Source: an uncultured Oscillospiraceae bacterium | GTDB lineage: Bacteria; Bacillota; Clostridia; Saccharofermentanales; UBA5734 | NCBI GenBank assembly: GCA_964652975.1 | Contig: CAZZCN010000003.1 | Span: 29,976-93,975 of the forward strand | Direction of reading: 5' to 3' | Length of the DNA: 64,000 nucleotides | Shown here: positions 1-38,162 of the stretch, one piece after another | How the letters are laid out: every line of letters starts with the position of its first letter | Numbering within the stretch: position 1 is the first letter of the stretch | The notes under the pieces: generated by a model | What the model was told of the DNA's origin: nothing | What the model saw: the letters and a program-made list of their open reading frames with translations, nothing else | The model's database searches: none | Position numbers and translations under genes: made by a program

Positions 1-135
1 AAAAACACAAGAACTCATAAAAATTACAATACATAACGCAATTGTGATTATTCTTTTTAACATTTTTGTTTACCCCTTCACTGATTTAGATATTTATATT
101 CTAAACCTTTCTTTTTTCAACGGCCAAAGTGAATA

Positions 136-2238
136 CTACTTGGATACTAAAAAAACCGAGCTGACAGCTTTGAGCATTAACTCAAAATTCACCATGCCGT
201 TATTATATTTTATATTTCCTAAAGTTGATCTCTCATCATTATGTGGATTCCATATTTCAAAATCTTTTAAACCATTTATCGTAATATTGGATTTTATATC
301 CTTATCACTGCAATTTACAAAATAATAAATATCAGTGCCATCTTTAACCTTATGAATATATGAAAATACACCATCAGTATCCTCGTTTGTTTTAATTTCC
401 ACATCAAAAATCAAGGGACTTTTTTCAATTATCTCTTTCAATATTTCTTTTGTTAGATTCTCAATAAAATGCGCTTTGCCATTATGCCCTTTACTGTGAT
501 TACTTTCATTATTAAAGTCTCCAAAAATGTCATAAAGTATTTCTCTTAGCTCTTCTTCTTTTCCCTTTTCCAATGATTTAAACGCCAGCATACTCGTTGC
601 AATAATTGTGCCACCCTGTAAATAGAATTCTCTAAGTTTCTTGGCATTGCTTATACTCATCGTGCTTGACCCAGGTAGAATAAAAAGCTTATAGCTTTCA
701 AAATTTACTTCATTTTCAAGTGTAATCAGCCCATTTACAACCCTGCACTTTTCATCTAATGCCTCTGGGTGTATAAAAGTGTAATCTTTCCTGATATAGG
801 TTGAGAGGATTTCACCTATTTCCTGATAATCAAATTCTGCTGAATTAGGGCCACCTAAGTAGGGAGCTCCACCCCAATCAAAATGAAATACAGAGGTCAT
901 CCCATAGATTGGATATAACACTCCTATATCTGCAATATGTCTTCCCCTCTGTAATAGGTAAGAAACTTTTGCACAGTAGCGATTAAAATCATTTAGCGTA
1001 TCTTTATAATCATCGTTTCGATAAGATAATTCCGGCTTAAATACAATTTTATCGGGATTATCATTACTCCAAACAGAATGAGGAACTAACAAATTCATAC
1101 CCTTTGCAAACTGTTCCATTACCTCTTTATACATATCCTCAATTGAAGGATTCTGAGGCATTCCGCCAAAGCATTCTGACATTACCAGTTTTTTATCCCA
1201 ATTATACGCCGCACTACTTATGATTTTATATATTTTACTTGCTCTTCTTTTCGCAAAAACCTCGTCAAAGCCTGGAATGTCCTGATGCCTAAAGGACTTC
1301 ATTAAGTCCCCGGTCATACCGACAGGATTTAAAACCTCCTCTTGGTCAACGTGTCCTGTAAGGCTTATTTTGCGTTTTGTGCACCAATCCTGTATAACTT
1401 TAGGAAAGCCAATTGAATACAACTCTGCTCTAAAACCTAAAAGCATATTTCTTGCATAATGCGTTTCTTCTCCGATATCATACCAAAGACAAGGGTATAA
1501 AACTGCAGGACTAAACCCGTGCCGCATCATGAATTTTTCATTAAAATCCTCAGTCCACATTCTGCCGCTTGCACCATAAAATTGTGGTTCATCGTAGAAC
1601 GCACTATCTATGACATCTGGAAAATACTCTTTGAAGTTTTTGTAATATACCTCATGAGTTAATTCTATAAATTTCTCTACTGCAAAAGGATTTAAATAGT
1701 CAACCCTATCCCAGTCATCCTGTACACAACTAAAAATCATAACCTTCCAATTTTGCTCAGGTAAATGATAACGAACAAAATTGTTTTCCACAAAGTCTGC
1801 TAAATCAATTCTATTCTTTGATTCAGTATTAAAGGCTACGACAGCTAAGATTTTGCCCTGCGGCAGTTCAATATTGATTTCATCTTTTACTTCGTATTCA
1901 GTTTTCTCAAGCCTCTTTGCACACGCATCGGGATAATGCTTTTTAAGAAGCCCCCCTGCACTTCCACTTGGAAACCACCATTCATCATATAAACATATTT
2001 TAAGTCCCAGGTCTTTTGCTTCTTCTAAAACCACTTTATATGATTCTAAATATTCTTTTTGCATATATGGCAGGCAACAAGCGTCATATGGCAATATACC
2101 AAAGCCACCATATGACGTCAATTCTTTGCTTTTCTCCATAATCGTACGAATGCCTTCTTTTGTTGGCCTGTCATTCCAAAACCACAGTGGACGAGGAAAA
2201 TATTTAACCTTTGGTTCGTTAAAATCGTTATAATTCAT
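136..2238 (-). CDS. putative cytoplasmic glycoside hydrolase, family not assignable by eye
   Basis: 700-aa ORF with no signal peptide. The N-terminus 'PRPLWFWNDRPTKEGI..GGFGILPYD..LKICLYDEWWFPSG' resembles uncharacterised bacterial GH-like TIM-barrel proteins. AAGGTGATG lies upstream of the ATG. It is the last gene of the co-directional glycan block. Confidence 0.5.
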   Translation of the reverse strand: MNYNDFNEPKVKYFPRPLWFWNDRPTKEGIRTIMEKSKELTSYGGFGILPYDACCLPYMQKEYLESYKVVLEEAKDLGLKICLYDEWWFPSGSAGGLLKKHYPDACAKRLEKTEYEVKDEINIELPQGKILAVVAFNTESKNRIDLADFVENNFVRYHLPEQNWKVMIFSCVQDDWDRVDYLNPFAVEKFIELTHEVYYKNFKEYFPDVIDSAFYDEPQFYGASGRMWTEDFNEKFMMRHGFSPAVLYPCLWYDIGEETHYARNMLLGFRAELYSIGFPKVIQDWCTKRKISLTGHVDQEEVLNPVGMTGDLMKSFRHQDIPGFDEVFAKRRASKIYKIISSAAYNWDKKLVMSECFGGMPQNPSIEDMYKEVMEQFAKGMNLLVPHSVWSNDNPDKIVFKPELSYRNDDYKDTLNDFNRYCAKVSYLLQRGRHIADIGVLYPIYGMTSVFHFDWGGAPYLGGPNSAEFDYQEIGEILSTYIRKDYTFIHPEALDEKCRVVNGLITLENEVNFESYKLFILPGSSTMSISNAKKLREFYLQGGTIIATSMLAFKSLEKGKEEELREILYDIFGDFNNESNHSKGHNGKAHFIENLTKEILKEIIEKSPLIFDVEIKTNEDTDGVFSYIHKVKDGTDIYYFVNCSDKDIKSNITINGLKDFEIWNPHNDERSTLGNIKYNNGMVNFELMLKAVSSVFLVSK

Positions 2239-2272
2239 TTCATCACCTTGTTAAATGTTCCTTTTTTGTGGA

Positions 2273-3823
2273 CTATTCTCCACGAAAAGGATAATCAAAA
2301 GACACTTTCCCCGATAAAACAGGTTTAAAATCTTTACTAAATTTATATTTCTCATTAGGCTTAATTGAAACAGAAGTTTTTTTGTCTCCGACTGTTATTT
2401 CTACAGTTCTTTCAATCGTATCAATACCAATTAGTTCAATAACATTTCCCTCGAAATCGGTTACGACTCTTGCAAAGGCACTACATTCAAAAAGTCTCTC
2501 GCCATTCCTGAATCCACAAAATGTTGCTGCATCATTTTCTAAATAGTATTCATTTTCAAACCATGTTTGGCTATATCTATGTTCTCTGGTTGCAAAACTA
2601 AGTCCAGACCAATAAATAGTATTATTATTCATATGAATTCCGTACATTTTCGCAATATATTCCAATACTGCTAATATAGTAGGTCCATAGCCATCAAAAT
2701 CCTTGTTTTCTTTCAAAGAGGGTTCCATCGTAAACGGGTCAAATTGTTGGGTAAATACGCAGTACTTTCCAACTGCTTTAATTAGTTTTTCACCTAATAA
2801 TGTAACCTCGGCAAAGTGACCGTAATTTTCAAGTGCCATGATTGCTCTTTGATAGGTCAAACCTTCTGGTTGACCACTCCAATCATTATGTGAATTATTT
2901 CTAAAAAGCTTTTCGCTAATTGCAATAGATGGTAGGGGAAGTGGCGTCCAAAATTCATTTGGATTTAAAAGATGATATTTTATGAAGTTATCTGCCATGT
3001 CTTGTGTAAATGCACCGAAATACATGACACGCAAATTATTATGGATCAATACATCTAAAATCTCATTATTACAATCCCTGTCATAGCATGCATTTTTTTC
3101 TTCAATCCACAAATAACTTCTTATTTTTTCTTTTACTTCATCTGATTTTTTACGCCAATATTGTTCTTTCCCATTTTTTAAGATTTCAGAAATTACTGAT
3201 AGAACATACCTGCCGTTATATGAATAACCCATTAAGTCCATTGACTCATAAGGCAATTTCGCCTTTCCGTAGGGAGCGCTTTCTCCACCCCAACTGTTGG
3301 GGGCTTCATAAAATCTTGTGCTGAAATCTTCACCTGTATCCCATATACACCATACTTCAAGGCATCCGTCTCCATCCGAATCTCGATATTTCCAAAGATA
3401 ATTATCAAAGCCCACCAAAACATCATATAGTTTTTCGAGATAATCTTTATCTTCTTTTGCGAGAAAATACATATTGAATGCATGTGTTGGAAAACAATAA
3501 CCTTGAAGCCAATCATAATCACAGTGAATAGTACCATCGTTATTTAAAGATATCATTCCAGGTAGTCTTCCGTCTTCTCTCTGATTATTCATAAAAACAA
3601 GTTGGTTGTTTACAGCTATCTCAATATTTCTTTTTGCATACATTTCTCCACCCATTGGCTGGGTTTCAAGCCAAACGTTTGGATATAAGGATGTGCCCTC
3701 GGTAAGTACATTTACATCTCCAAATTTAGCTATATTTTTGCTAATTTTAATTTCTGCTTCATCAAATAATTTTTGAATAAAATTATTTGATGCTTTAAAC
3801 GAGACATGTGATTCTTTAAACAT
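2273..3823 (-). CDS. (alpha/alpha)6 six-hairpin glycosidase, GH63/GH37-like
   Basis: The ORF track starts at 3853, but the first 10 codons lie inside the 3837..3870 hairpin. The ATG at 3823 is preceded by AAAGGAGAAAT. 'DGDGCLEVWCIWDTGEDFSTRF' fits the acidic x-G-x-D-x-S-x-R motif of trehalase/GH63-type enzymes. No signal peptide. Confidence 0.55.
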   Translation of the reverse strand: MFKESHVSFKASNNFIQKLFDEAEIKISKNIAKFGDVNVLTEGTSLYPNVWLETQPMGGEMYAKRNIEIAVNNQLVFMNNQREDGRLPGMISLNNDGTIHCDYDWLQGYCFPTHAFNMYFLAKEDKDYLEKLYDVLVGFDNYLWKYRDSDGDGCLEVWCIWDTGEDFSTRFYEAPNSWGGESAPYGKAKLPYESMDLMGYSYNGRYVLSVISEILKNGKEQYWRKKSDEVKEKIRSYLWIEEKNACYDRDCNNEILDVLIHNNLRVMYFGAFTQDMADNFIKYHLLNPNEFWTPLPLPSIAISEKLFRNNSHNDWSGQPEGLTYQRAIMALENYGHFAEVTLLGEKLIKAVGKYCVFTQQFDPFTMEPSLKENKDFDGYGPTILAVLEYIAKMYGIHMNNNTIYWSGLSFATREHRYSQTWFENEYYLENDAATFCGFRNGERLFECSAFARVVTDFEGNVIELIGIDTIERTVEITVGDKKTSVSIKPNEKYKFSKDFKPVLSGKVSFDYPFRGE

Positions 3824-3836
3824 ATTTCTCCTTTTC

Positions 3837-3870
3837 AAATCAGCAAAGGTCAAAAGACCTTTGCTGATTT
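3837..3870 (-). terminator. 13-bp-stem hairpin between the 987-aa gene and the GH63-like gene (possible internal attenuator/terminator)
   Basis: ATCAGCAAAGGTC-AAAA-GACCTTTGCTGAT is a perfect inverted repeat flanked by A/T runs. There is no long U-tract on the minus strand, so strength is uncertain. Confidence 0.45.
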
Positions 3871-3885
3871 TGAAAATTAGTTTAA

Positions 3886-6849
3886 TTAACTTATGCTGAT
3901 ATTATCCATATATAATTTATCTGTGAGGCTTATATTATGAACTGTGAACTGAATATATTTTCCTGAAGAATTTGCTTTAACTGTAGTGTTAATTGTAACC
4001 TCAGTCCATGTTCCGCTTGCCAATCCTGTTGCAGCAAAACTTCCATCCGGTTTAACAATGTTAATAGTTCCATTGCTCCCATCAACATACATATACACTT
4101 TTGCAGAAACATTGTCACCGGCATTAAAATTATTCAGTAATGAATTATTAAAGATTGATATTGTACTCCATCCATCGGAACTATTAGAAAATTTTAATGA
4201 ATGTGTACCACTATAAGCTCTTTCAGTGCTTAATGAAAGTAAACCATTATTGTTTACAAAGTCGCTCTTGCTAAATGAATAACCTTCAAAATTACATTTT
4301 GTAGGTTTAATGCTGATATTATCAAAATAAACCTTATCTGATAGAACTGCATTGTGAATGGTAAATCGAATATACTTCCCGATCGAATTTTGCCCAACGG
4401 TAGTATCGGCTGAAACCCCTATCCATTTTCCACTTTCCATGTAGGTTAGAGCAAAAGTATCATCTGCCTTCACAAGATTAATTGTTCCGTTATTTCCATC
4501 AATATACATATTCATTTTAACATTAATTGCATCACCAGTACTATAATTTCTAAGCAATTCATTATTGTAGAATGTCAGAACGCTCCAGCCATCAGGACTA
4601 TTTGTGAATTTGAGAGATTTTGTTCCTTGATAAGCTTTTTCTGTGCTTACAGAAAGACTACCGCTGCTATGGGAATAATCATCCTCAGAGAATATGCCAC
4701 TTTCAAAAGTCCAATCAATTGGAGTGATGCTTAAATTATCAATATATACTTTATCATTTGCTAAAGCATCATTAACGATAAACTGAATGTATTTCCCTAT
4801 TGAATTCTGCTTTATTTCTGAATTGACAGTTAATTCAAGCCATTTACCGCTCTCTAATCCTGTATAAACAAAGTTTGAATTTGAATTCAATATATTTACA
4901 GCGCCATTGCTTCCATCGATAAACATATACATCTTTGCTCTGACAATATCTCCTACAGCATAATTACTAAACAGTTGTCTGTTATAGAAGGTAAGTACAC
5001 TCCAAGTATCACTACCGGTGAATTTCAGTGATTTTGTTCCTTCATATGCTTTTTCAGAACTGATAGAAAGAGTTCCGTTATTATGGGAGTAATCATTTTC
5101 TGTAAAGCTATTATTTTCAAAGGTCCAATCAATTTTTTCTACCGCTAAGCTATCAAAATAAACCTTATCCGTAGGAGTTGCATTATGAACAATGAACTGA
5201 ATATATTTACCAATTGTATTTTGCTTGACCTCGGTATTAACAACGATTTCATTCCAAATATTGCTTTGAAGCGAGGTTAAAGCAAAGTTGCCATCAGAAT
5301 TAACAATATTAACCGTACCTGAATTTCCATCGACCAATACATTTAATCTTGCTTTTACAATATCCCCAACCTGATAACTATTCAAAACATCTGCATTATA
5401 AAAGCTCAAAACACTCCATGTATCAGGACTTCCCGTAAATTTGAGAGATTTTGTTCCAGCATATGCTTTTTCGGTACTGATAGAAAGATTGCCGTTATTA
5501 TGAGAATAATCATTTTCTGAGAAATTAATATTTTCGAATGTCCAATCCATACTGGACACACTCATATCGTCAAAATATATCTTATCACTTGGTATCGCAT
5601 TGTGTATTGTTAACTCAAAGTATTTACCTACTATATTTTCCTTGACTGTGGTATTAAAAATAACTTCTGTCCATTTGCCATTTTCTAAATTATTAATGGC
5701 ATAATTACCATCAGCTTTTACAAGATTTATTGTACCATTGGTTCCATCAACAAAAACATGCAATTTTATTCTGATATTATTATTCACAGAGTAATTTTTA
5801 AGTAATGATTCATTATAAAATTTAATAGTACTCCATGTATCAGGGCTTCCAGTGAATTTCAGGGATTTAGCACTTGCATTGTAGGTCCTTTCGGTGCTAA
5901 CCGATAAAATGCCATTGTTATGAGAGAAATCTTCGTCAGAATAATTATAATTATCAAATGTCCAATCCATTGGAGAAACTTTTATATCACTTAAAAATAT
6001 TTTATCAGTTGGAGATGCATTATGTATGGATATTTTGATATACTTGCCTGTAGCATCTTCTCGGACATCTGTTCTGTCAATAGCCTCAACCCATTGGTTG
6101 CTTGGCAACTGGGTTAATGCAAAATTCCCATTCGCTTTCACAAGGTTTATAGTGTTAGAATTGCCATTGATAAATAGCTGCATTTTAATTCTGACTGTAT
6201 CTCCGCGAACAAAATCGTTCATCAAAGTTGCGTCTCTTAAAATGATATCTGTCCAAACGTCTCTACTGCCTGAAAGTTTTATACTTTGCTGACCGGGGAT
6301 ATAACTTTTTTCATTTGTAAAAAGCAATGCCCCATTTGATGCTTCTGCCAGATTAGAATAATAAATGAAACCTAATATTTGTTTTTTAATGCTAAGTAAA
6401 TCCAAAATAGATACACTGTTTTGCTTTATTATTTCAGCTGCTTTCAGATTTGATCCACTTAATAGTTGTATTTTTAATATATGCCTTTTAACTAAAACTA
6501 AATCTTGTACATCAGTTAGTCCGTCACCGTTTGTATCCCCGGGTGTAACAACTTCAAAATGAATTGTTGTACTATTATTTGAGCTGTCTGTTACTATAAG
6601 AGTATAGTTACCGGTTTTTTGAATTTTTGTTCCATTCGTAAATAGTTCTCCGTTTAGTGTTGCAGTGCCCTCATCAAAGGTTACTATGGCAGCCCCTCCT
6701 GTGCTGCCTTCTGTTACTCCTTGTACAACCGGCGGAGTTGTGTCTCCACCGTCTGCCGACACCGGAATTAAGGCGGTTGAAAAAATAAGTGCCAGAGATA
6801 CAAGCGCTGCTAATGACATTTTAAACCTTTTTAAATTTTTCCTTTTCAT
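3886..6849 (-). CDS. secreted multi-module glycan-binding protein: signal peptide, Ig-like module, dockerin-like module, 6 tandem CBM-like modules
   Basis: 987 aa. The signal peptide is 'MSLAALVSLALIFSTALIPVSADGG'. A dockerin-like loop 'DTNGDGLTDVQD' is present. Six ~138-aa repeats each end in 'DK[IV]Y[FI]D[ND][IL]S[IV]'. Confidence 0.8.
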   Translation of the reverse strand: MKRKNLKRFKMSLAALVSLALIFSTALIPVSADGGDTTPPVVQGVTEGSTGGAAIVTFDEGTATLNGELFTNGTKIQKTGNYTLIVTDSSNNSTTIHFEVVTPGDTNGDGLTDVQDLVLVKRHILKIQLLSGSNLKAAEIIKQNSVSILDLLSIKKQILGFIYYSNLAEASNGALLFTNEKSYIPGQQSIKLSGSRDVWTDIILRDATLMNDFVRGDTVRIKMQLFINGNSNTINLVKANGNFALTQLPSNQWVEAIDRTDVREDATGKYIKISIHNASPTDKIFLSDIKVSPMDWTFDNYNYSDEDFSHNNGILSVSTERTYNASAKSLKFTGSPDTWSTIKFYNESLLKNYSVNNNIRIKLHVFVDGTNGTINLVKADGNYAINNLENGKWTEVIFNTTVKENIVGKYFELTIHNAIPSDKIYFDDMSVSSMDWTFENINFSENDYSHNNGNLSISTEKAYAGTKSLKFTGSPDTWSVLSFYNADVLNSYQVGDIVKARLNVLVDGNSGTVNIVNSDGNFALTSLQSNIWNEIVVNTEVKQNTIGKYIQFIVHNATPTDKVYFDSLAVEKIDWTFENNSFTENDYSHNNGTLSISSEKAYEGTKSLKFTGSDTWSVLTFYNRQLFSNYAVGDIVRAKMYMFIDGSNGAVNILNSNSNFVYTGLESGKWLELTVNSEIKQNSIGKYIQFIVNDALANDKVYIDNLSITPIDWTFESGIFSEDDYSHSSGSLSVSTEKAYQGTKSLKFTNSPDGWSVLTFYNNELLRNYSTGDAINVKMNMYIDGNNGTINLVKADDTFALTYMESGKWIGVSADTTVGQNSIGKYIRFTIHNAVLSDKVYFDNISIKPTKCNFEGYSFSKSDFVNNNGLLSLSTERAYSGTHSLKFSNSSDGWSTISIFNNSLLNNFNAGDNVSAKVYMYVDGSNGTINIVKPDGSFAATGLASGTWTEVTINTTVKANSSGKYIQFTVHNISLTDKLYMDNISIS
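3889..6357 (-). repeat. six in-frame tandem coding repeats (~411-420 bp each) encoding a CBM-like module
   Basis: By hand count the modules start at aa 165, 294, 434, 573, 710 and 849. The recurring core is 'DWTFE..FSE.DYSHNNG.LS.S.EKAY.GTKSLKFTGS.D.WS...FYN'. Confidence 0.85.
6370..6540 (-). other. dockerin-like module (first F-hand intact, second degenerate)
   Basis: aa 104-160 read 'GDTNGDGLTDVQDLVLVKRHILKIQLL..AAEIIKQNSVSILDLLSIKKQILG'. Loop 1 matches DxNxDGxxxxxD. Loop 2 has lost the acidic ligands. Confidence 0.55.
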
Positions 6850-6906
6850 AGTTTTTTACATCCTTTCAAAATATTTATATTTAAGTTTTCTTAAATATCA
6901 TAATAA

Positions 6907-9900
6907 TTAACTGATAGAAATATTATCAAAATAAATTTCATCAGATGGTTTTGCATTGTGTACAATAAATTCCACATACTTCCCGAGTGCGTTATTCATA
7001 ACCTTGGATATAACTGTAACCTCTACCCAATTGGCGCTGACAATATTTGTTTGTGCAAAGTTTCCATCGGGTTTAACTATGTTTATTGTTCCACTACTGC
7101 CCTCAATGTACATATAAAACTTTATTCTTGAAATATTTCCTACATCTATTGAATCAAGGCCACTTAACCCATATAAATCTATGACACTCCAGCTATCCTT
7201 GCTGTTGGTAAGCATTAATGATCTACTGCTGTTGAAACCTCTTTTAGTGCTTATATATAAGTTTCCATTGGTGTTGGCAATATCCTCCGAATAGTATTTG
7301 TAATTTTCAAAGGTATAATCCACTGAGTTTTTAGAAGTTTTTTCAATGGTTATGTTATCAAGATAAACCTTATCCATTGGAGTCGCATTATTGATTATAA
7401 AGGTGATATACTTGCCAAGACCATCGTCTGCAATCACGCTGCTATAGGTAATAGAATGCCAGAAGTTGCTTTCAATCTTTGTTTTTATAAAAATATAATC
7501 ATCATTATTTTTCTTTACAAAATTAACTGTTCCTGTACTTCCGCTTATATATGCATTCAAAGAAATTGCAACATTATCTCCAGCCGAATAATCTCTTAAC
7601 AAATTATCATTATAGAATTTGATTACACTCCAGCCTTCAAGACTTCCTGTAAACTCCAGGGATTTATTGCTGTTAAACGCCTTTTCATTGCTAATATACA
7701 AATCACCATTGTTATGTGAAAAATCATTTTCTGATATATTGTAATTTTCAAATGTCCAATCCATTGATGTTATGGCAATATTATCGATATAAATTTTATC
7801 TGTAGCTAAAGCCTTATGAATTATAAATTCGGCATATTTTCCAAGAGCATTTTCTTTAACAGAAGATCTTACAATCACTTCTACCCATTTGCCACTTTCT
7901 AATTTTGACAAGGCAAAATCACCATCGGATTTTACTATGTTAATAGCCATATTGCTTCCATCAATATAAACATGAAGTCTAAGTCGAATTAATGACCCTA
8001 TAGATAATTTATTAAGTTGTGGCAAGTTATATAAATCGATTACACTCCAGTCATCTTTACTATTAGTTAGCAATAAAGATTTTCTGCTGTTATAACCTCT
8101 TTCACTACTGACAGAAAGAGTTCCGTTTGTATTTGAAATATCTTCTGAAAAATATTTATAGTCCTCAAATGAATAGTCAACAGGGTTTTTGCCTACCTTT
8201 TCGACTTTTATGTTGTCTATATAAATATTATCTGTCGGGGCGGCATTATTGATTGTAAAGGTTATATATTTTCCCAATCCGTCATCTGCTATAATGCTGC
8301 TATAAGTCAATGAATGCCAAAAGTTATTCTCAACCTTTGTTTTAATAAAAACATCACTGTTTTTAATCTTTTTCAAGAAGTTGACTGTGCCATTACTGCC
8401 TTCAACATAAGCATTTAAGGAAATAGCAACTGGATCCCCAATTGAATAAGTTTTCAACAAATCATCATTATAAAATTTTATGACGCTCCAGCCTTTAACA
8501 CTATTAGTGAATTTCAAAGAGCTTTTACTGTTATAGCCTTTAATATTACTAACAGAAAGATTTCCATTGTTATAGGAAAAATCATCCTCTGAAAATTTGT
8601 AGCCATCAAATGACCAATCAATAGGCGAAAAACCAATGTCATCAATATATATTTTATCATTTGGTTTTGCTTCGTTTATGGCAATTTGAATATATTTTCC
8701 AAATTTATCTTTTTCGACATATGCTCTGAAGGTTATTTCAATCCATTTATAATTATTGAGCTGATTTTTTATAAATATAAATTTATCAGAAGTTTTAGGC
8801 CATGCTTTTACAAAGTTTACAGTTTTATTGCTTCCATCAATATAGATAAACATTTTTATACCTAAAATATCGCCAACAGAATGGTTATCTAAAAGATTAT
8901 TGTTATAAAATTTTATCGTACTGAATTTATCCTTGCTTTGAGTTAATTCCAATGACTTATGACTATTATGACCTAAAGCATTAGTAATTTTTAATGATCC
9001 ATTTGAAGAAATAATATCATCCGCATAAAATGGATAATTTTCAAATGAGTAGTCAGCTATATTATTAACAATGTTAAATATACTTATATCATCTATATAT
9101 ATGGTATCGGATGGGACTGCCTCATTAATTGCAATTTGAATGAACCTACCCATACTTCCTTCTTGAACAGTCGCCTTAAACTGCAGTTCAATCCACTGTC
9201 CAGAGGATAGACTTTTCTGTATTATTCCAAAGTTGCCTTCTATATTTGGAGACCACTTAAATAAATTAATTTTATTGTTGCCCCCATCAATATAAGCATA
9301 TAGTTTCATGCCTACTGTAGATCCTTTTGCATATTTGCTGAAAGCCTTGTCATTATAGAACTTCAAGGTTGTAAAAGTATCAGCACTACCTGTGATTTTT
9401 AAAGACTTCTTACTGTTATGTGCTTTTTCTTCACTAACAACAATAGAACCATTGTTTTTTTCTATACTGTTCCATAAATATTGTTTACTTTCAAAAGTCC
9501 AGTCAGTCACATTATTAATAGTACTAATGTTCTCATTAGTTCTAAGAATATTGATATCACAAAAATATAGAGTAGTATCATAAGTAATCGTATCTGTTTG
9601 ATTTTTATAAGTTCCATTTTTATAGTTCATAGTAGTAATTTTCAAGCTAGGTTTCCCATTAACCATGAATAAGCTGTTTAATTCATTTTTATGTATAATG
9701 AGCTGAGACCATTCTTTCAATGGCAAATCATAGAATGCTTTTTTGTCATTTAAGATTATACTTGCAGGAAATTCGCTGTTATTGTAAACCCAGAAATATA
9801 CTAATTCTACATCATCAAATTTATCAATATTAAGATTTTTGAAATGTATTTCTGGCCATCTAGCTTCGCCTTTAGTAGTAAACAGCTTTAATGACCCATT

Positions 9901-10632: not shown

Positions 10633-10638
10633 CTCTTC

Positions 10639-11850: not shown

Positions 11851-11861
11851 TTCTATTCTCC

Positions 11862-14381: not shown

Positions 14382-14400
14382 CTAAATCCATCCCTTTCTA

Positions 14401-15957: not shown

Positions 15958-15973
15958 AATTTTCCCTCCTGTT

Positions 15974-16849
15974 TTATCCTTTAATTCCACCTGTTACCAT
16001 GTTTTCCATAATAGTATTTTGAAAAATGGCAAAAATAACAAGCATTGGTAACATAGATATTAGTATTCCTGCAAAATATACAGGCCAATTCATATTATAT
16101 TGGGCGATAGTTTGATAGCTGAACAAGCCCGATGCCAAGGTTGGATAGCTTGGCAGATAAATAATAGGCAATGTATAATCATTCCATACACCTATCATCT
16201 GCACTACTGCTATGGACATAATTGATGGCATTGCTTGTGGTAACATAACATTAAAAAATATTCGATAATGGCTTGCCCCGTCTATACTGGCGGCTTCCAT
16301 ATAAGTGGTTGATAAATTTTTAAAATATGCATATAGTATTAAAAACGTAAATCCAAAACCACTTGTAAACATAATTAATATAAACGGTGTATCATAAATA
16401 TTTAAATCATTTATTAGTTTATATTGCGCAGGTAATGCACCTACAATTGGAATTATCATAATAAATATTGCTAGGTTGTAAATGAATTGTTTGCCGATAA
16501 AATTATATTTGGCAACAACATACGCAGTCATAGAAGTAACAAAAACAGTAATAGTTGTTGCAAATACGGTAAGCCATACCGAATTGAATATCATAGAAAA
16601 CATATTGTTTCCGCCATATTCAAGCAGAGAAAATGCCTTTAAAAAATTATCAAATCTCAATATCGAAGGTATTCCCAATTTGTCGGTTAAGAATTCTATA
16701 TTGCTTTTCAACGATGAACTTATGGCCCAATAAAATGTGTAAAAAAAGCTTGATGTGTAGGTGCCAAAAACAATAGTTAAAATAACTCTTGATATTTTTT
16801 CTTGTTTTGATAGCTTTTTGTATTTTTTAAACATAAATTTCCCTACCAT
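15974..16849 (-). CDS. carbohydrate ABC transporter permease (LplC/AraQ-like)
   Basis: 291 aa, multi-TM, with an EAA-like loop 'MEAASIDGASHYRIFFNVMLP'. It overlaps the upstream permease by 7 nt. Confidence 0.85.
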   Translation of the reverse strand: MVGKFMFKKYKKLSKQEKISRVILTIVFGTYTSSFFYTFYWAISSSLKSNIEFLTDKLGIPSILRFDNFLKAFSLLEYGGNNMFSMIFNSVWLTVFATTITVFVTSMTAYVVAKYNFIGKQFIYNLAIFIMIIPIVGALPAQYKLINDLNIYDTPFILIMFTSGFGFTFLILYAYFKNLSTTYMEAASIDGASHYRIFFNVMLPQAMPSIMSIAVVQMIGVWNDYTLPIIYLPSYPTLASGLFSYQTIAQYNMNWPVYFAGILISMLPMLVIFAIFQNTIMENMVTGGIKG

Positions 16850-17775
16850 TCCGCATCATTTCCAATTTTGTTAAGAATGTATTTTACTGTCATAACAATT
16901 GGAAAAGCTATTGCAGTGAAAAATAATCCAACAGCAGATGAATATTCATAAGATTTATATTGTGTTACTTGCCAGAAAATCCAAAACGAGATTGTATTGG
17001 TTTGATATTTACCCTCTGAGAACAGAAGTATCGGACCTGAAGCTGTGAAAATCCCAACTATGGAAACTAAAAGCAAAGTGGAAATCGTTGGCCATATTAA
17101 TGGAATTACAATTTGAAAGATCTCTCTGAATTGTCCCACTCCGTCTATTTTTGAATACTCAATAACACTCTCGGGAATTCTAAGCATCGCACCACTGAAC
17201 AAAACCATATTTAGCCCAAAACCAGTCCATATACAATAAATGATAATGCTTTGAAGTGCATATCTGGAATCAACCAGGAAAAACGGAGCTTTGACGTGAA
17301 AAAGAAATTCATAAAGAATGCTGACAGGCCCATTTGGTCCTAAAATACCTTTATAGATTGAAACTAACACCACTGACGAAAATATCATTGGAAGAAAGAA
17401 AATGAATTTGTATAATCTATATCCTATTATTTTTTTATATAAATAATATGCAAAAAACAATGATAAAGGTAATATGATAAATAAATTTACCGAAAAGAAT
17501 ATTAGTGTGTTTCTTAAAGCCATCGGCAATTCAGATGTGTCTCTGCCAAACTCTCTAAACAACATATTGAAATTATCTAAAGTAAATACTGTGCCACTTG
17601 CGTTTGTTTGCTTGAAAGCAAGTAGAATGGAATTTAAATTTACATAAAGCCAAAACACTATAAAATTAACAATAGCAATAGATAGCATTGAGTAAACAAA
17701 AATATATTTTTTTGCATTTTTACTCAATCCTTTTTTTTCTTTATTTTTCGCAAACTTCATTGCCATCGAAATCAA
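16843..17775 (-). CDS. carbohydrate ABC transporter permease (LplB-like)
   Basis: 310 aa, multi-TM, with an EAA-like loop 'IEYSKIDGVGQFREIFQIVIP'. A 4-nt overlap with the GH36 gene suggests translational coupling. Confidence 0.85.
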   Translation of the reverse strand: MISMAMKFAKNKEKKGLSKNAKKYIFVYSMLSIAIVNFIVFWLYVNLNSILLAFKQTNASGTVFTLDNFNMLFREFGRDTSELPMALRNTLIFFSVNLFIILPLSLFFAYYLYKKIIGYRLYKFIFFLPMIFSSVVLVSIYKGILGPNGPVSILYEFLFHVKAPFFLVDSRYALQSIIIYCIWTGFGLNMVLFSGAMLRIPESVIEYSKIDGVGQFREIFQIVIPLIWPTISTLLLVSIVGIFTASGPILLFSEGKYQTNTISFWIFWQVTQYKSYEYSSAVGLFFTAIAFPIVMTVKYILNKIGNDAEW

Positions 17776-19862
17776 TCTCCCTTCTCCAATTCTATTTCAA
17801 ACAATCTCGCCTCAAATTCCTTTTCAAATTTAACAGTTAATTTCTTGTTATCATATTGGTAGTTTGTATTCATTTCCTTAGGATAACCAACTTTGATCGA
17901 GCTTATATTTAAATCCTGAAGTGGTATCTCAACAGTTCCATCAGAACCCAGATTATAAACTGACAAATAACATATTCTGTCTGTTTTAATGCCCGCTATT
18001 GCTGTTTTTTCTCCCCAATAACATAACCCCAGGGGCCAATAGGGATCTGAATGCTTCTTGTTATCAGACATTAAATTGTAGTATTGAATTCCTTCTTTAA
18101 TCAATGCTGTTTTTTCTGCATCCAATAAATCAATTGAGCTGCTCAAGTGCAATCTACCAAGCATTGAATTAATCATATTCATTGCTACACTTTCATTGGT
18201 AACTGTTAATACATCCTGTTTATCCTCAATCGGGTAACTCCATACAGCTGATTGTTCCGGTGTAACAGCAGTTATCATATTTGAAACAATGTATGGATAT
18301 TTTTTATAATCAGTTTGGTCAGATGTTGACTGAATACTATGTAAGGACATTAGAGCATAATCCATCCTCTGTCCACCACTTGCACAATTTTCAATTACTA
18401 AATCAGGATATTTTTTAAATACACTTTCAATCCAGCATCTATAAGCACGACTATGATCCAGAAGGCCATCTCCAAGACTGCAGGAATTCAAATCAGTTCC
18501 TGGACCGCTGCATTGATTATAATCAATTTTTATATAATCCACCTCATAGTCATTGACGACTCTATCTATAAGTTCATTCATTCTTTTGATAACTTTTTGA
18601 TTGCGAAAATCAAGCTGATAGCGCCCTGAATTTATTACCTTTTTCCCATTTCTTTGGAAGAAGCAGTCATCTTCCCACATATCAATTGCATTCCCTCTTA
18701 TTCCAACCGCTTCTAATTCAAGCCAAAGACCAGTTTTTAACCCTAACCCTTTTATATAATCCAGTGTATTTTTTAGTCCATTTGGATATCTCTTTTTGCT
18801 TTCGATCCAGTTCCCGATATAAAGCCAACAATCATCTTCTTCATCATGCCATGCACAATCAATAACATAATAATCAATTCCTAATAGAGCTGCATATTTT
18901 GCAAGCTTTTTGCTGTTTTCTTCTGTTGGAAAGTTCCAAGCACAGTGCATATACTCATTAAATATAGTAGGGAGTTTTTCATTGTCTTCATTTTTTCTCC
19001 TGATTCCCCTTCTATATCGTGTAATATTCCCAAAAACTGAATTGACGCTGTTCCCAACAGTTATGGCGGCAATTACAGAAACGAATTTTTCTCCCGGATT
19101 TAAAAATTTACTCCATAAATTATCGGATAAATTAGGTCCTCCAATATTAAAATAAATACTGCTAAAGTAATCCCCTATTTCATAGTGCCAGCTTCCGTTG
19201 TTTTCTATCTGAAATAATAAAAACTGATTGTTTCTTGTATCCTCCACCATGCCCATTGGCAGCTGCTCCTTGCTTGACCAACTTCCTGTATTTGTAGCAT
19301 TTACTCTTTTCAGGGTTGTGGAATGGTTTCCGCTGAAGATACCCAAATCCATGAGCCTGACTTTTCTCCATTGACATTCGCAGTGCCAGCTATTGGTTGG
19401 AATATAATAGTCTAAATATTCATAAGGTTTATCTCCAAAAACGCCATATAATGCAAATGAACTAAGATGTTCAACACAAATTTTTTCTTCAGAAATATTT
19501 TCAATTTCATTATAACTTCTTAATGTGTTTGTCCCATAATAAACTTCGTAATAAGTTTTAACTTCGAAATTAAGATTTTTTTGAACTATTTTAAGTGTTT
19601 TCTTATTTTCAAAAGTGATTATGGAATGTTCAACATATTTTAAAGTTGTAGCTTCACTTGTTGATATATGCCTTGCCCCTCTGTGACCAAAATTTTCGCC
19701 CCCGGAAATTTGTAGCTCAACTAAATATGATTTGATCATGAGAGATTCGTTTTTTTCTTTTTCATAGCATATCCCACAAAAATCAATCAATCGAATTTCA
19801 TTATCATCATTAATCAGAAATTGCATACTGACATTATCTTGTTCAAAGTTAAATGATTTCAT
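17772..19862 (-). CDS. GH36 alpha-galactosidase / alpha-N-acetylgalactosaminidase family enzyme, cytoplasmic
   Basis: 696 aa. 'VDYIKIDYNQC' and 'ENCASGGQRMDY' match the GH36 KxDxN and CxxGGxRxD motifs. No signal peptide. Confidence 0.8.
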   Translation of the reverse strand: MKSFNFEQDNVSMQFLINDDNEIRLIDFCGICYEKEKNESLMIKSYLVELQISGGENFGHRGARHISTSEATTLKYVEHSIITFENKKTLKIVQKNLNFEVKTYYEVYYGTNTLRSYNEIENISEEKICVEHLSSFALYGVFGDKPYEYLDYYIPTNSWHCECQWRKVRLMDLGIFSGNHSTTLKRVNATNTGSWSSKEQLPMGMVEDTRNNQFLLFQIENNGSWHYEIGDYFSSIYFNIGGPNLSDNLWSKFLNPGEKFVSVIAAITVGNSVNSVFGNITRYRRGIRRKNEDNEKLPTIFNEYMHCAWNFPTEENSKKLAKYAALLGIDYYVIDCAWHDEEDDCWLYIGNWIESKKRYPNGLKNTLDYIKGLGLKTGLWLELEAVGIRGNAIDMWEDDCFFQRNGKKVINSGRYQLDFRNQKVIKRMNELIDRVVNDYEVDYIKIDYNQCSGPGTDLNSCSLGDGLLDHSRAYRCWIESVFKKYPDLVIENCASGGQRMDYALMSLHSIQSTSDQTDYKKYPYIVSNMITAVTPEQSAVWSYPIEDKQDVLTVTNESVAMNMINSMLGRLHLSSSIDLLDAEKTALIKEGIQYYNLMSDNKKHSDPYWPLGLCYWGEKTAIAGIKTDRICYLSVYNLGSDGTVEIPLQDLNISSIKVGYPKEMNTNYQYDNKKLTVKFEKEFEARLFEIELEKGD

Positions 19863-19884
19863 AATTATTTTTCTTTCTCCCTCT

Positions 19885-21765
19885 TTACTGAACTCCCAAA
19901 CAATTAACCGTAGATATGTACTCCCAGTTGTTATACAAAATCATTCTTGATTTTCCAAAATTATTTTCATTTCCAAAAATATCAAGTTGGTCTTCTTCCA
20001 ATTCATCTATAATACTAATTTCACTATTAACAAATTGTTCTAAACGCTTTTTACAACTCTCGATTCTAAGCAAAAGCCCGCCAAATCTGATATCCTGAAC
20101 ATCAAAACCATGTGGCTTGTTTTCTAAGAACCATTGCTCTTTAAACGCTTCATATAATGCTTTGATTTTAACTAAAATCTGAGTATAGTCATTTGATATC
20201 AGTATTTTTATTGCTGCTAAATCTTTTTGTTTATAAGCTTTTCTTGTTTTGATGCCAAGAACAATTTTTATTTCCAAAACTTCTGTTAATGCTTTAAGTG
20301 TTTTAAAAATATATGAAAATTCGCTGCATTCATTTTGAGCTTTTGCGATTTTAGGTAAATTTATTTTATATGTTTCTTTATCCTCCGGTGTAATAGCTGT
20401 ATCTAAAACACCATTAAAGCAATCATCATACAAAATATATCTATTTGAATTGTTAAGTTCCTTAGGATTTTCACTTGTGCTCAATCTATTTGCCAGGTCA
20501 ACACTCATAAATGTATCAAAATCACATTTTGCACAAGCTTTAAATGCCGAATAAAATTCTTTACTTTTCGCTTCATATCCATAAAGAGTTTCTGAATACA
20601 AAACCAAAGTAGGCAAAACGCTGAATATCGAGCATTCTCCACCGCCATCGCCCCAAGCCGTAACCAAAACATCCTTTATTCCATTTTCCAGACAAGAGTT
20701 AAGTGCAATGGAGGAAGTAAACATGCTAAATCTGTTATCTGGCACGAAACCAATCCATTTCATTGCTCCTCCGGCAAAGGTTATAGGATTATTAAACATT
20801 TTGTGTTTTTTTATCATGCCGTCATAATGGCTAATTTCATCACCAAAATAATCCCAATATATGAGAGTAACTTCTTTTGGTACGTGCTTTGTAATTTCCT
20901 CTGTAATAACAGCTTTATTATTATATTCTCCCTTGGCAGCAAGTCTAAAGAACATATCGCTCCACATGGATGGCTGAAAACCATATTTATTGCATATTTC
21001 GACAATTATTTTTAAGTGGTCAGCCATAATTTTATTTCTGCCCACAAACCCATGAGTATCTAGATATTTACCTAACCCAAGCATATGAGCTTCATCCATA
21101 CCAATATTTACTTTTCTACTGGTAAAACATTCAGAAAGTGTTTTAAAAATGTTGTCAATCAGCTTATATGTTCTTTCACTGCCCACCAGTAAAATATCGT
21201 TGTAATCAATAATTTCCTGATAAGGCTCCCACTTTGTGATAGACTTTAAATGTGCAAGTGTTTGAATGCAGGGCATCAGCTCAATACCAAAACAATTTCC
21301 ATAATAATCGAGTTCTTTTAACTCTTCTTTACTATATCTTCCTCTGAAATGTCCGAAATAAGGCTCATCTTCAACCTCAAATGTATCTTCAGTATATAAT
21401 TGTAAATATGTATAGCCCAACATTGAAATTTTACGAATTAGTTTTTTTACTGTTTCTATTTTGGGAACTGCATTTCTTGAACAATCAACCATTAAGCCGA
21501 GATCTTCTACTTTGCAAGTTTCATTAATAATAAAATCAGTATTATTAGCGTTTTCAATATATATTCTGAAACCTCTAAAAAATTCTGATAAATGCGAATA
21601 CTCAATTAGCACCTCGTTTGATTTGCATATTACATTAAGCCCATTATTTATTTGATAAGCTTTTAAAATTACTCCGTCATTACCGATTTCAAAATTCAAG
21701 TCTTTTTGCAATTCAGTAATTGCTGATTTCTTAATATTATCTAAATTTTCAAAATTTATATTCAA
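19885..21765 (-). CDS. GH20 beta-N-acetylhexosaminidase (GcnA-like, with C-terminal helical domain), cytoplasmic
   Basis: 626 aa. 'LGLMVDCSRN' and 'VNIGMDEAH' (the D-E pair) match GH20 motifs. The start is TTG, 7 nt after AAGGAGCG. No signal peptide. Confidence 0.75.
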   Translation of the reverse strand: MNINFENLDNIKKSAITELQKDLNFEIGNDGVILKAYQINNGLNVICKSNEVLIEYSHLSEFFRGFRIYIENANNTDFIINETCKVEDLGLMVDCSRNAVPKIETVKKLIRKISMLGYTYLQLYTEDTFEVEDEPYFGHFRGRYSKEELKELDYYGNCFGIELMPCIQTLAHLKSITKWEPYQEIIDYNDILLVGSERTYKLIDNIFKTLSECFTSRKVNIGMDEAHMLGLGKYLDTHGFVGRNKIMADHLKIIVEICNKYGFQPSMWSDMFFRLAAKGEYNNKAVITEEITKHVPKEVTLIYWDYFGDEISHYDGMIKKHKMFNNPITFAGGAMKWIGFVPDNRFSMFTSSIALNSCLENGIKDVLVTAWGDGGGECSIFSVLPTLVLYSETLYGYEAKSKEFYSAFKACAKCDFDTFMSVDLANRLSTSENPKELNNSNRYILYDDCFNGVLDTAITPEDKETYKINLPKIAKAQNECSEFSYIFKTLKALTEVLEIKIVLGIKTRKAYKQKDLAAIKILISNDYTQILVKIKALYEAFKEQWFLENKPHGFDVQDIRFGGLLLRIESCKKRLEQFVNSEISIIDELEEDQLDIFGNENNFGKSRMILYNNWEYISTVNCLGVQ

Positions 21766-22081
21766 ATTTTTTCGCTCCTTTATCTCTTTTACAATTACAT
21801 TATAATTTTTATATATATTAATTCAACATTATAAATACATATTTAATTCATTTAATCGCTTATAAAGTTACTTTTTGCTACTTTTAATTGACTTTATCTA
21901 TGTTTATGATATAATTACAACAAAATCTTCAAATTAGCATGATTTTTTATCTAATTTAAATATTGTTCTCTACCTATTGTAAATTACATTTAGCACTAAT
22001 TTAATATGAAAAATAAGTTATTGATTTTACAACTACAATTCACTCATATTATAATATAATTTAATTGAAAGAAAGGAGATT

Positions 22082-23059
22082 ATGAAAATGGATTTTAAAT
22101 CCGTTGATTGGTTTAAATTAGCTGGATACTACTCAGAAAACTTTGAAGAATATGACATGGTACCTCATTCACATATTCGTACTGAAATCATGTATTGTAA
22201 ATCAGGTGAATGTTCAATATCTTACGATTCAGCCGATCATAAAGCTGAAAAAATAATTCATCTCAGTCAAGGAGAATTTGTTATTGTGAATCCTGAAACT
22301 CCGCATAAACTTTCTAAAGGAAAGGGCGGGTTAGCCTTTATTTACAATTTAGAATTTATATATATTCATCCAACCTACGGAACAATTTTTACCATTAACA
22401 GCTTCTTAAAAGATTGCAAAGGTTTTATTAATATGCTAAAAGAACCTTTGATTAAATTAAATGATAATGGGCACATTTACCATCTGATCGAAATGATTCA
22501 ACGCACGAGCGAAGATTTAGGATTAGATAATAGTAATACTTATTTGGATACATTAATTTATGCATTGTTTTATAATATTTATCATTGCTATGAGAAAAAT
22601 CTTTATGTAAACATAGGATATAAATATTTAAAAGAAGCTATCAAATATATTGAAAATAATTATAGTTTAGATATTAATATTTCCGACATTGCTAAAGAAG
22701 TCGGTATTAGTCAGTCCTATTTACGTAAGCTGTTTAATCAAATTCTTAATACTAATATTATTAATTTTATTAATACACACAGAATCGAGAAATCAAAATC
22801 GTTATTACATAATTCAACTATTTCAATAGAAAAAATCTCTTTATTAGTTGGCTTTACCTCAAGACAAAATTACACAAAAACCTTTAAAAGACTTGTAGGA
22901 AAAGAACCTACTCAATTCAGAAAGGACTTAGAAACTTTTAAAATGTATAAATACATACAGGGAGTTGGCACCTTTAACACGATACATATCAAGAGTGACC
23001 AAGATCAGAGTAAACCTGAATATGAAGGTGTATCAAAGATATATTACCCTGAAAAATAG
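22082..23059 (+). CDS. AraC family transcriptional regulator (cupin sensor + HTH)
   Basis: 325 aa, divergent from the glycan block. The C-terminal HTH reads 'ISDIAKEVGISQSYLRKLF..FTSRQNYTKTFKRLVGKEPTQFR'. The RBS is AAAGGAGATT. Confidence 0.85.
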   Translation: MKMDFKSVDWFKLAGYYSENFEEYDMVPHSHIRTEIMYCKSGECSISYDSADHKAEKIIHLSQGEFVIVNPETPHKLSKGKGGLAFIYNLEFIYIHPTYGTIFTINSFLKDCKGFINMLKEPLIKLNDNGHIYHLIEMIQRTSEDLGLDNSNTYLDTLIYALFYNIYHCYEKNLYVNIGYKYLKEAIKYIENNYSLDINISDIAKEVGISQSYLRKLFNQILNTNIINFINTHRIEKSKSLLHNSTISIEKISLLVGFTSRQNYTKTFKRLVGKEPTQFRKDLETFKMYKYIQGVGTFNTIHIKSDQDQSKPEYEGVSKIYYPEK

Positions 23060-23553: not shown

Positions 23554-23592
23554 TAAAAAGCCCCAAATGCAATGATATCAGCGTTTGAGGCT
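23554..23592 (-). terminator. intrinsic terminator of the tRNA operon
   Basis: On the minus-strand RNA, AGCCUCAAA pairs with UUUGGGGCU (9 bp including one G-U). This is followed by UUUUU, immediately 3' of tRNA-Cys. Confidence 0.6.
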
Positions 23593-23599
23593 CTTGTTT

Positions 23600-23674
<75 letters not shown>

Positions 23675-35940: not shown

Positions 35941-35988
35941 TAAGGTAATTATATCAAGCACAGTAGCATTTTAAGTTACTCAATATAC

Positions 35989-36540: not shown

Positions 36541-36565
36541 TATATTCACCCTCATGTTCATTTGT

Positions 36566-38158: not shown

Positions 38159-38162
38159 CCAA

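Follow-up and report, generated by a model that had tools for sequence, protein, structure and literature searches.

The 64,000-nt window analysed here, a stretch of contig CAZZCN010000003.1 (GenBank assembly GCA_964652975.1, positions 29,976 to 93,975, forward strand) from an uncultured Oscillospiraceae bacterium, begins with about 23 kb of AT-rich DNA that carries genes for glycan breakdown and uptake and runs up to a tRNA operon. This arrangement raises the question of whether the locus was inserted as a unit at the tRNA genes, as an earlier reading of the letters without database searches (the sequence-only reading) had proposed, and on what glycan its products would act. We consider it likely that the tRNA-Cys gene received, at its 3' end, an island of about 30.6 kb whose cargo is a Gram-positive polysaccharide-utilisation locus (PUL). 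The window sequence also lies within a 98.5-kb contig of JGI metagenome 3300044991 (Ga0485167_0000056, approximately record positions 34115–98114), whose prefix is that of contigs from the Lake Mendota freshwater series (PMC13053139).

Between positions 1 and 23059 there are 11 open reading frames (ORFs) on the minus strand, from 136 to 21765, all co-directional and either overlapping slightly or separated by at most 57 nt, and a divergently transcribed AraC-family regulator gene (22082–23059, plus strand; Table 1). The G+C fraction of this block is 0.316, versus 0.416 for positions 23060–64000. G+C at third codon positions (GC3) is 0.22–0.31 per gene in all 12 locus genes and 0.36–0.55 in 29 of the 31 ORFs to the right, with both low-GC3 exceptions falling in a small toxin-cassette patch at 35989–39487. 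When the roughly 40 kb of adjacent DNA in the window was used as the core, deviations in tetranucleotide usage correlated at r = 0.88 between the two halves of the island and at r = 0.80–0.87 among core segments, versus r = 0.55–0.69 for island against core. The right-hand DNA is of a housekeeping character, encoding a corrinoid adenosyltransferase, a beta-CASP RNase, glutamate synthase (GltB), lysyl-tRNA synthetase (LysS), GreA, IMP dehydrogenase (IMPDH), RadA and IspD. The sequence-only reading had described 11 co-directional minus-strand genes with a divergent AraC regulator in a block more AT-rich than the DNA after it; our ORF coordinates agree with this description, and the composition analysis that it had suggested places a sharp shift in G+C, GC3 and tetranucleotide signature, relative to the in-window core, at the junction.

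That junction lies beside a Met-Glu-Gly-Cys tRNA operon whose 3' end faces the locus, also as previously described; the 3' end of tRNA-Cys points at the AraC gene, whose stop codon is 540 bp distant. To the left we relied on a locus of the same population, L072, which reaches about 9.9 kb beyond window position 1. Using blastn, we found that window positions 23597–23648 recur in L072 at 19313–19262 (repeat B), identical at 52 of 52 nt, in direct orientation and some 7.0 kb to the left of where the window starts. The sequence-only reading had placed the left end of the island outside the window and had suggested looking upstream for a directly repeated tRNA-Cys 3' end; this search was positive and agrees with that placement. 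Repeat B takes in the 3'-terminal 49 nt of tRNA-Cys, anticodon loop through CCA end (23600–23648, an att-type core), and zero matches of this kind are expected by chance. For tRNA-targeting integrases, 49 nt spanning the anticodon loop through the 3' end make up a classic crossover class; such tRNA sublocation classes were reportedly set out by Williams in 2002.

A second partial copy (repeat A, L072 19544–19429) lies about 115 nt farther out than repeat B and is 87% identical over 116 nt to window 23509–23617, comprising 91 nt of diverged downstream flank and terminator and 18 nt of the tRNA-Cys end. Since tRNA gene prediction on L072 returned none, copies A and B are fragments. The intact tRNA-Cys and both fragments each have their own hairpin and U-run within a few bases of the 3' end; the terminator in the flank of the intact gene (flank A) has a folding energy of –17.8 kcal/mol. 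Nested tRNA-Cys fragments with their own terminators are the pattern that two successive site-specific integrations would leave, each displacing the earlier 3' end and terminator. The repeats enclose about 30.6 kb of DNA holding 13 co-directional genes and the AraC gene.

At and near the ends of the enclosed segment there are several smaller features. The two tRNA-Cys fragments are separated by about 115 nt (L072 19311–19428). This spacer has a perfect terminator hairpin immediately behind the 49-nt fragment and also an inverted piece resembling a tRNA 3' end, 'GTTCAAATCTGGGGGCCTCC', and it may be a remnant of an earlier element. Near the right end of the island a short motif, 'CGTATTACAATGGTATTACAATG', is doubled at window 23464–23487, and a similar one occurs just inside the left end (L072 19204–19180); the pair agree at 22 of 25 nt (blastn E = 0.004, possibly by chance), and these motifs might be recombinase arm-type sites. 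The non-coding left end, 1.1 kb long, contains a pemK RNA motif (Rfam RF02913; L072 18780–18939, plus strand, about 6.5–6.7 kb left of window position 1) with a score of 51 bits (gathering score 34.8); its first hairpin contains a large insertion. In L072 this motif has neither a pemK gene nor another toxin gene near it, and it is probably a relic of a mobile-element module. At the right end, positions 23060–23508 gave no Rfam match at E ≤ 1 and folded no better than shuffled sequences (z = –0.46). Six-frame Pfam scans of both non-coding ends were empty, with no integrase remnant.

Table 1. Features of the island, its boundaries and the adjoining DNA (positions are those of the window unless L072 is named).
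Feature	Position	Strand	Basis or remark
Genes just outside the outer repeat	L072 19598–22103		656-aa CBM9 protein; GH43 + CBM9 protein; AT-rich
576-aa GH78-like six-hairpin protein	left of window, inside repeats		followed by 1.1 kb of non-coding DNA
1412-aa secreted protein	left of window		Ig-like domains, ricin lectin domain, dockerin (37 bits, cutoff 22.9), weak GH42-like TIM-barrel match
700-aa cytoplasmic GH106-like glycosidase, candidate alpha-L-rhamnosidase type	136–2238	-	no signal peptide
526-aa cytoplasmic (alpha/alpha)6 glycosidase, MGH1/GH63-like	2273–3853	-	PF22422 71 bits; Trehalase 23 bits
987-aa secreted protein	3886–6849	-	signal peptide, short Ig-like N-terminal segment, type I dockerin (103–159), six CBM22-like repeats (163–987)
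1241-aa protein with N-terminal membrane-helix anchor	6907–10632	-	conserved region of about 370 aa, then six CBM22-like repeats (377–1241)
408-aa lipoprotein, candidate surface glycan-binding protein	10639–11865	-	conserved partner directly after the GH123-like gene
839-aa GH123-like surface lipoprotein, candidate oligosaccharide-releasing beta-N-acetylgalactosaminidase	11862–14381	-	
Lipoprotein solute-binding protein (SBP) of ABC importer	14401–15990	-	SBP_bac_1 65 bits
ABC permease 2	15974–16849	-	BPD_transp_1 74 bits
ABC permease 1	16843–17775	-	BPD_transp_1 52 bits
696-aa cytoplasmic GH36 enzyme, candidate alpha-D-galactoside or beta-L-arabinopyranoside type	17772–19862	-	
626-aa cytoplasmic GH20 exo-beta-N-acetylhexosaminidase, GcnA/GH20C type	19885–21765	-	first gene of operon; no signal peptide
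Divergent control region, very AT-rich	21766–22081	.	between GH20 operon and AraC gene; read from sequence
AraC-family regulator	22082–23059	+	cupin sensor and HTH_18 domains; Pfam HTH_18, HTH_AraC, AraC_binding
Non-coding right end of island, G+C-richer	23060–23508	.	no recognisable gene, RNA family or integrase remnant
Flank A, tRNA operon terminator and downstream flank	23509–23599	-	87% identical to the copy beside the 18-nt tRNA-Cys fragment (blastn)
tRNA-Cys(GCA), intact	23600–23674	-	ARAGORN + Rfam
tRNA-Gly(GCC)	23716–23790	-	ARAGORN + Rfam; host side of junction
tRNA-Glu(TTC)	23808–23882	-	ARAGORN + Rfam; host side of junction
tRNA-Met(CAT)	23891–23967	-	ARAGORN + Rfam; host side of junction

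The cargo includes a surface lipoprotein related to glycoside hydrolase (GH) family 123. This protein matches PF13320 (DUF4091/catalytic; 52 bits, cutoff 23.1) and PF22680 (N-terminal beta-sandwich; 45 bits, cutoff 27). Among solved structures its closest relatives are 8k2f (Group 1; E = 2e-27), 8k2j (Group 3; E = 5e-21), 8k2h (Group 2; E = 8e-18) and the classical BvGH123 (E = 1e-7), an order of closeness that reflects sequence matches and not a tree. The first of these, deposited as an oligosaccharide-releasing beta-N-acetylgalactosaminidase, is presumably the Group 1 enzyme NgaCa. All three 8k2 entries are enzymes of Sumida et al., who state that the natural substrates of oligosaccharide-releasing beta-N-acetylgalactosaminidases are unknown and in whose work the GH123/DUF4091 superfamily is characterised by a consecutive Asp-Glu (DE) motif at the catalytic centre (PMC11087588). 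The putative catalytic pair of the window protein, D318-E319, is invariant among 18 aligned homologs; this pair was equated with the published DE motif by its context, 'VVDEPNF', in an alignment made without any characterised GH123 or Nga sequence. The window protein thus resembles NgaCa and Group 1 (PMC11087588; 8k2f) in its N-terminal beta-sandwich, DUF4091 domain, invariant DE motif and best solved match, and differs in being a lipoprotein, 839 aa long, whose C-terminus is extended by about 280 aa.

By inspection, the GH123-like protein, the 408-aa protein and the SBP all have lipoprotein-type N-termini. The nearest NCBIfam models to the SBP are those for CPR_0540-type and NgcE chitobiose SBPs, both below cutoff. 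Pfam scans detected no ATP-binding cassette (ABC) ATPase domain in the locus genes or anywhere in the window and so agree with the previous description of an importer made of an SBP and two permeases without an ATPase gene. This is also the arrangement of CUT1 importers that use a shared MsmK/MsmX-type ATPase, which likewise have an SBP and two permeases in a locus without an ATPase gene. The 408-aa lipoprotein belongs to no Pfam or NCBIfam family, and an AlphaFold2 model from its single sequence was unusable (pLDDT 32).

Cytoplasmic enzymes make up much of the remainder of the operon. The GH20 protein matches PF00728 and the GH20C C-terminal domain PF18088 (171 bits), and aligns over its full length with GcnA of S. 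gordonii (2epk, E = 5e-141) and GH20C of S. pneumoniae (5a69, E = 4e-133), with which it shares the order of GH20 and GH20C domains and the lack of a signal peptide. The pneumococcal GH20C gene sits in an N-glycan trimming locus, a genomic context different from that of the window gene. The GH36 protein matches Melibiase PF02065 (105 bits, cutoff 27); its closest curated NCBIfam model, BAD_1528 beta-L-arabinopyranosidase, scores 363 bits, below the equivalog cutoff of 1100, and solved alpha-galactosidases match only distantly (E = 5e-27). BAD_1528 is a Bifidobacterium beta-L-arabinopyranosidase (PMC8056906). No alpha-N-acetylgalactosaminidase reference was matched among the NCBIfam models and solved structures. 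The GH106-like protein was assigned through PF17132 (102 bits, cutoff 29), scores 55 bits with the NCBIfam BT4145-type rhamnosidase model, far under the equivalog cutoff, and has a distant solved relative in 6q2f (E = 1e-6). The MGH1/GH63-like protein has no solved-structure relative detectable by sequence.

These results largely sustain the enzyme assignments of the sequence-only reading, which had named four glycosidases without signal peptides (GH20, GH36, GH63-like and one unassigned). The N-termini agree on inspection, the families are upheld by Pfam, and the unassigned enzyme is the GH106-like protein. The proposed removal of alpha-N-acetylgalactosamine (alpha-GalNAc) found no support, the GH36 enzyme being nearest to the beta-L-arabinopyranosidase/alpha-galactosidase clade. 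The GH123-like lipoprotein is the only secreted enzyme candidate inside the window, as had been claimed; the island continues to the left with the secreted 1412-aa dockerin protein and its weak GH42-like match, and for the island as a whole that claim does not stand.

Six copies each of a roughly 140-aa module resembling carbohydrate-binding module (CBM) family 22 occur in two large proteins, of 987 and 1241 aa. The 12 copies are 35–64% identical to each other, and those of the 1241-aa protein score 182–198 bits each against a profile built from these same 12 repeats, scores that only delimit the modules. Searched against the Protein Data Bank, this profile matched the CBM22 tandem 4xup (E = 1.5e-5). 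An AlphaFold2 model of one repeat (pLDDT 89.6) had CBM22, CBM4, CBM16 and CBM61 as its top Foldseek matches (probability 1.00, TM-score 0.5–0.6, about 15% identity). Neither repeat protein matched PF02018 (CBM_4_9) at E ≤ 0.01. Against 1.84 billion representative proteins the profile scored strongly only with this population's own proteins; 29 proteins were matched at E ≤ 1e-3, and some of the weak matches carry CBM_4_9. Compared with the xylan- and glucan-binding modules of CBM22 and CBM4/9 (4xup, 4xuo, 1dyo, 2y64), the repeats have the same beta-jelly-roll fold (TM-score about 0.6) and differ in their identity of about 15% and in having no Pfam CBM_4_9 match. As judged from the modelled fold, the module is a lineage-restricted offshoot of the CBM4/9/22 fold that lies outside those families by sequence. 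A tandem-repeat finder detected no DNA-level repeat in the CBM region, which implies that the module copies are old.

A common 'YxDNI' end prompted the idea that this repeat is also present in the 408-aa lipoprotein, in the C-terminus of the GH123-like protein and in the 1412-aa protein; we rejected it, as the repeat profile finds none in them and a profile-profile comparison gave a non-significant probability of 4.7%. The dockerin of the 987-aa protein (Dockerin_1, 31 bits, cutoff 22.9) lies near the N-terminus and not at the usual C-terminus, and on inspection its second calcium-binding segment lacks the usual Asp/Asn pattern and looks degenerate. Type I dockerins on secreted proteins of a glycan-degradation locus are shared with cellulosome and 'mucinolysome' systems (bioRxiv 10.1101/2025.10.14.682383). 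Unlike in those systems, the dockerins here are on a non-catalytic multi-CBM protein and one candidate enzyme, and no cohesin or scaffoldin was seen among the window proteins scanned.

In the control region between the operon and the AraC gene there are promoter-like hexamers at 21826–21799 (minus strand) and 22026–22055 (plus strand); the scan that located them returned 130 sites in total versus 108.5 ± 8.7 in shuffled controls, and the promoter and terminator scan overall was barely above, or no better than, such controls.

Identity to the GH123-like protein is only 35% in its nearest homologs, yet their gene neighbourhoods match, and the cassette type recurs in other uncultured Clostridia at 22–55% identity. 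In L084 the order is AraC (minus strand), GH20, permease, permease, SBP, GH123-like, a 401-aa protein and a large protein, with identities to the window of 44, 55, 52, 44, 35, 30 and 25% from GH20 through the large protein. In L086 and L087 it is permease, permease, esterase, SBP, GH123-like, a 383-aa protein, a 913- or 1063-aa protein, GH36 (44%), ADP-ribosylglycohydrolase and GH38. The 408-aa lipoprotein is 30% identical to its positional equivalent in L084 and 22% to that in L086 and L087, and the N-terminal 370 aa of the 1241-aa protein share 24–25% identity with the large proteins that take its place in all three loci. In these loci the N-terminal region of about 370 aa is the conserved part of the large protein, and the CBM-like repeats are an addition specific to the lineage of the window. 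In two further loci from uncultured bacteria (L091 and L092, with GH123-like homologs P0154 and P0160) the neighbours include GH106-like, rhamnosidase six-hairpin, GH38, GH2, GH28 and GH109 proteins and GDSL/AXE esterases, which hints at a shared acetylated glycan target containing N-acetylhexosamine (HexNAc) and rhamnose.

How the locus reached its present position was also examined through its relatives. All other contigs with these genes are 99.9–100% identical to the window, and thus represent a single population sampled repeatedly; the junction between AraC and tRNA-Cys was recovered at this identity in independent assemblies of several samples (L066, L067, L068, L069 and L090). For the beta-CASP protein that flanks the locus, one relative is 93% identical, on a 4.6-kb contig. 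The next are 68–70% identical and include metagenome-assembled genomes labelled Saccharofermentanales, and GTDB species representatives reach at most 63%. A relative at 68% has the same tRNA operon (91% identical) near the same beta-CASP gene and no PUL, with the operon inverted and in another context. Flank A is partly similar to the tRNA-Cys flank of this relative, and under the integration model flank A must be island-borne. Searching phage and plasmid collections with blastn returned one tRNA-fragment match and short matches overlapping the pemK-motif region, and the 48-nt att core had no exact match in viral contigs. Beyond the island, the CBM9 protein matched only unrelated loci at 30–37% identity among metagenome contigs, and no protein matched the N-terminal 133 aa read from the next gene to the left.

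Of the features that define a tRNA-linked island, atypical composition, tRNA adjacency and flanking tRNA 3' repeats are present and an integrase is absent, the last being one of several points that weigh against insertion. No integrase, excisionase, relaxase or transposase is encoded between the repeats, where all ORFs are accounted for. No relative with an empty site was found among the recovered contigs and relatives; the contig of the 93%-identical relative stops inside tRNA-Cys, distant relatives are not syntenic, and none of the reference-genome relatives (at most 63% identical with the beta-CASP query) has the tRNA operon alongside. We rejected the contig break of the 93% relative as a sign of an island there, as a second tRNA-Cys gene copy would break the contig likewise. 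The low G+C runs at least 2.5 kb past the repeat, where the CBM9 and GH43 genes have a GC3 of 0.30–0.34, which carries the compositional anomaly past the island as bounded by the repeats, and the 1412-aa island protein is itself intermediate (GC3 0.37). Lastly, the genomes of the related cassettes are 46–47% G+C, the nearest GH123-like homolog has the low identity given above, and no donor was identified.

Some of these points would suit a native, vertically inherited locus, whose low G+C would be typical of accessory carbohydrate-active enzyme (CAZyme) genes and whose tRNA-Cys fragments would be scars of unrelated elements. The extension of low G+C into the CBM9 and GH43 genes, the lack of mobility genes, the age and wide distribution of the cassette type in Clostridia and the likeness of the flank beside the intact tRNA to the lineage's own flank all speak for it. 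We nevertheless think this unlikely, as a 49-nt tRNA 3' fragment lying 30.6 kb off in direct orientation is hard to make without inserting the whole segment, the repeats bracket exactly the co-directional operon and AraC, and the tetranucleotide usage of the block differs from that of the 40-kb core. A false join during metagenome assembly, with foreign AT-rich DNA attached at a conserved tRNA operon, is hardly credible: the source is a metagenome and composition changes beside tRNA genes, a classic place for such joins, but the junction, with its 540 bp of unique DNA, is identical in the independent assemblies named above, the far island end continues into further genes on one contig, and the flank that came with the island has homology to the lineage's tRNA-Cys flank. 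The two nested fragments (49 and 18 nt), each with a terminator, together with the divergence of the outer flank copy, would also fit an array of islands accreted at tRNA-Cys, in which the 30.6-kb block is the newest unit and the CBM9/GH43 region an older one, each with its own tRNA end and flank. Beyond the repeats the DNA is AT-rich and CAZyme-encoding, with tetranucleotide correlations to the core of r = 0.31–0.37, a value from just 2.5 kb, but no third repeat was seen in the 2.8 kb read there. We regard this array as very improbable; it extends the single-island reading and does not contradict it.

We therefore favour insertion of a PUL-bearing island, the claim of the sequence-only reading that the 52-nt repeat and the sharp compositional change support. 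Site-specific recombination into the tRNA-Cys 3' end would have placed the island, whose own mobility genes may since have been lost or may never have been present, the element being moved in trans. Judged by analogy, the block would work like a decayed or trans-mobilised island of the type of cis-mobilizable elements (CIMEs), which Pavlovic and Bellanger reportedly described as left by integrative elements. With tRNA-linked islands and CIMEs it shares atypical composition, location at a tRNA 3' end, direct repeats of the tRNA 3' part and nested fragments suggesting reuse; it differs in having no integrase or other mobility gene and in an island-side arm carrying about 91 nt of host-type tRNA flank, longer than the usual attP site. 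The donor was probably a relative with lower G+C. Flank A resembles both the outer copy (87%) and the flank of the 68% relative, whose locus has a G+C of 36.6%, and a lower-G+C donor of the same lineage fits this pattern. Loci of the L084, L086 and L087 type, at 46–47% G+C, are not the donor.

The cargo itself, one long operon and an AraC regulator, would form a Gram-positive PUL, for which the window supplies five glycosidase-family genes, an SBP with two permeases and the regulator. From the gene content and order, which were read directly, we infer how such a system may operate. The two large surface proteins, one anchored and one secreted with a dockerin, would hold the glycan at the cell surface through their six CBM22-like modules each. 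The GH123-like lipoprotein would cut beta-GalNAc linkages and free oligosaccharides, possibly helped by the 1412-aa dockerin protein, and the SBP and permeases would take up the fragments with an ATPase encoded elsewhere. In the cytoplasm, the GH20, GH36, GH63-like, GH106-like and GH78-like enzymes may then strip beta-HexNAc, alpha-galactose or beta-L-arabinopyranose and probably rhamnose-type residues. AraC would sense a breakdown product and turn the operon on. Gram-positive PULs (gpPULs) of Firmicutes such as Roseburia and Eubacterium, reportedly described by Sheridan and colleagues in 2016, likewise combine glycosidases, a CUT1-type importer without an ATPase gene and a regulator in one locus, with a surface enzyme and cytoplasmic exo-glycosidases. 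Unlike them, the window locus is centred on a GH123-like lipoprotein and two multi-CBM proteins of the 1000-aa class, has a dockerin on one surface part and belongs to a freshwater anaerobe and not a gut bacterium. In gut bacteria PULs are also carried on integrative elements.

Most likely the substrate is a heteroglycan of microbes or algae in the lake that contains HexNAc and 6-deoxy-hexose. The lake origin and the recurrent pairing of GH123-like proteins with rhamnosidase-type enzymes and esterases make such a source a better guess than a host. The sequence-only reading had envisaged capture, cleavage, import and trimming of a HexNAc/GalNAc-rich glycan from a host or a microbe. Its general model stands, with the GH123-like protein nearest to an oligosaccharide releaser, and its host option is unlikely in a freshwater lake; the rhamnosidase-like enzymes form part of the set beyond its HexNAc/GalNAc scheme.

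Elsewhere in the window, a second low-G+C patch lies within the core at 35853–39487 and encodes a DUF5104 protein (GC3 0.20), a 530-aa RHS-repeat/DUF4474 protein, a DUF1722 protein and a DUF6088 protein (GC3 0.275). The DUF5104 gene and most of the RHS-repeat gene lie between the copies of an 89-nt direct repeat (35853–35941 and 37647–37735, 94% identical), and the patch looks like a polymorphic-toxin or orphan-module cassette. Inside the DUF1722 ORF (38115–38678) there is a 42-nt tandem duplication (38265–38348, 83% identical).

tRNA-integrated islands and Gram-positive PULs are both already known kinds. With the locus described here, an uncultured freshwater anaerobe provides a clean, well-bounded case of catabolic genes acquired through insertion at a tRNA gene, and a clear if fairly ordinary example of how bacteria come by new diets. 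A bolder reading, which we find doubtful, is that tRNA-Cys is a landing pad for piled-up, integrase-less CAZyme islands moved in trans, each arriving with its own tRNA end, flank and terminator, the newest of which carries a hitherto unrecognised, conserved type of PUL, a new CBM family in 12 copies and a possible key to the substrate class of oligosaccharide-releasing beta-N-acetylgalactosaminidases. The locus is of value mainly because its genomic context gives a lead on what these oligosaccharide-releasing enzymes act on in nature. Its neighbourhood supplies candidates for assay, namely the ABC importer, the GH20, GH36, GH106-like and GH78-like enzymes, the lipoprotein of about 400 aa and the large anchored protein, and the 12 copies of the lineage-restricted CBM22-like module, a source of a new CBM-like module, would be natural probes for the target glycan.

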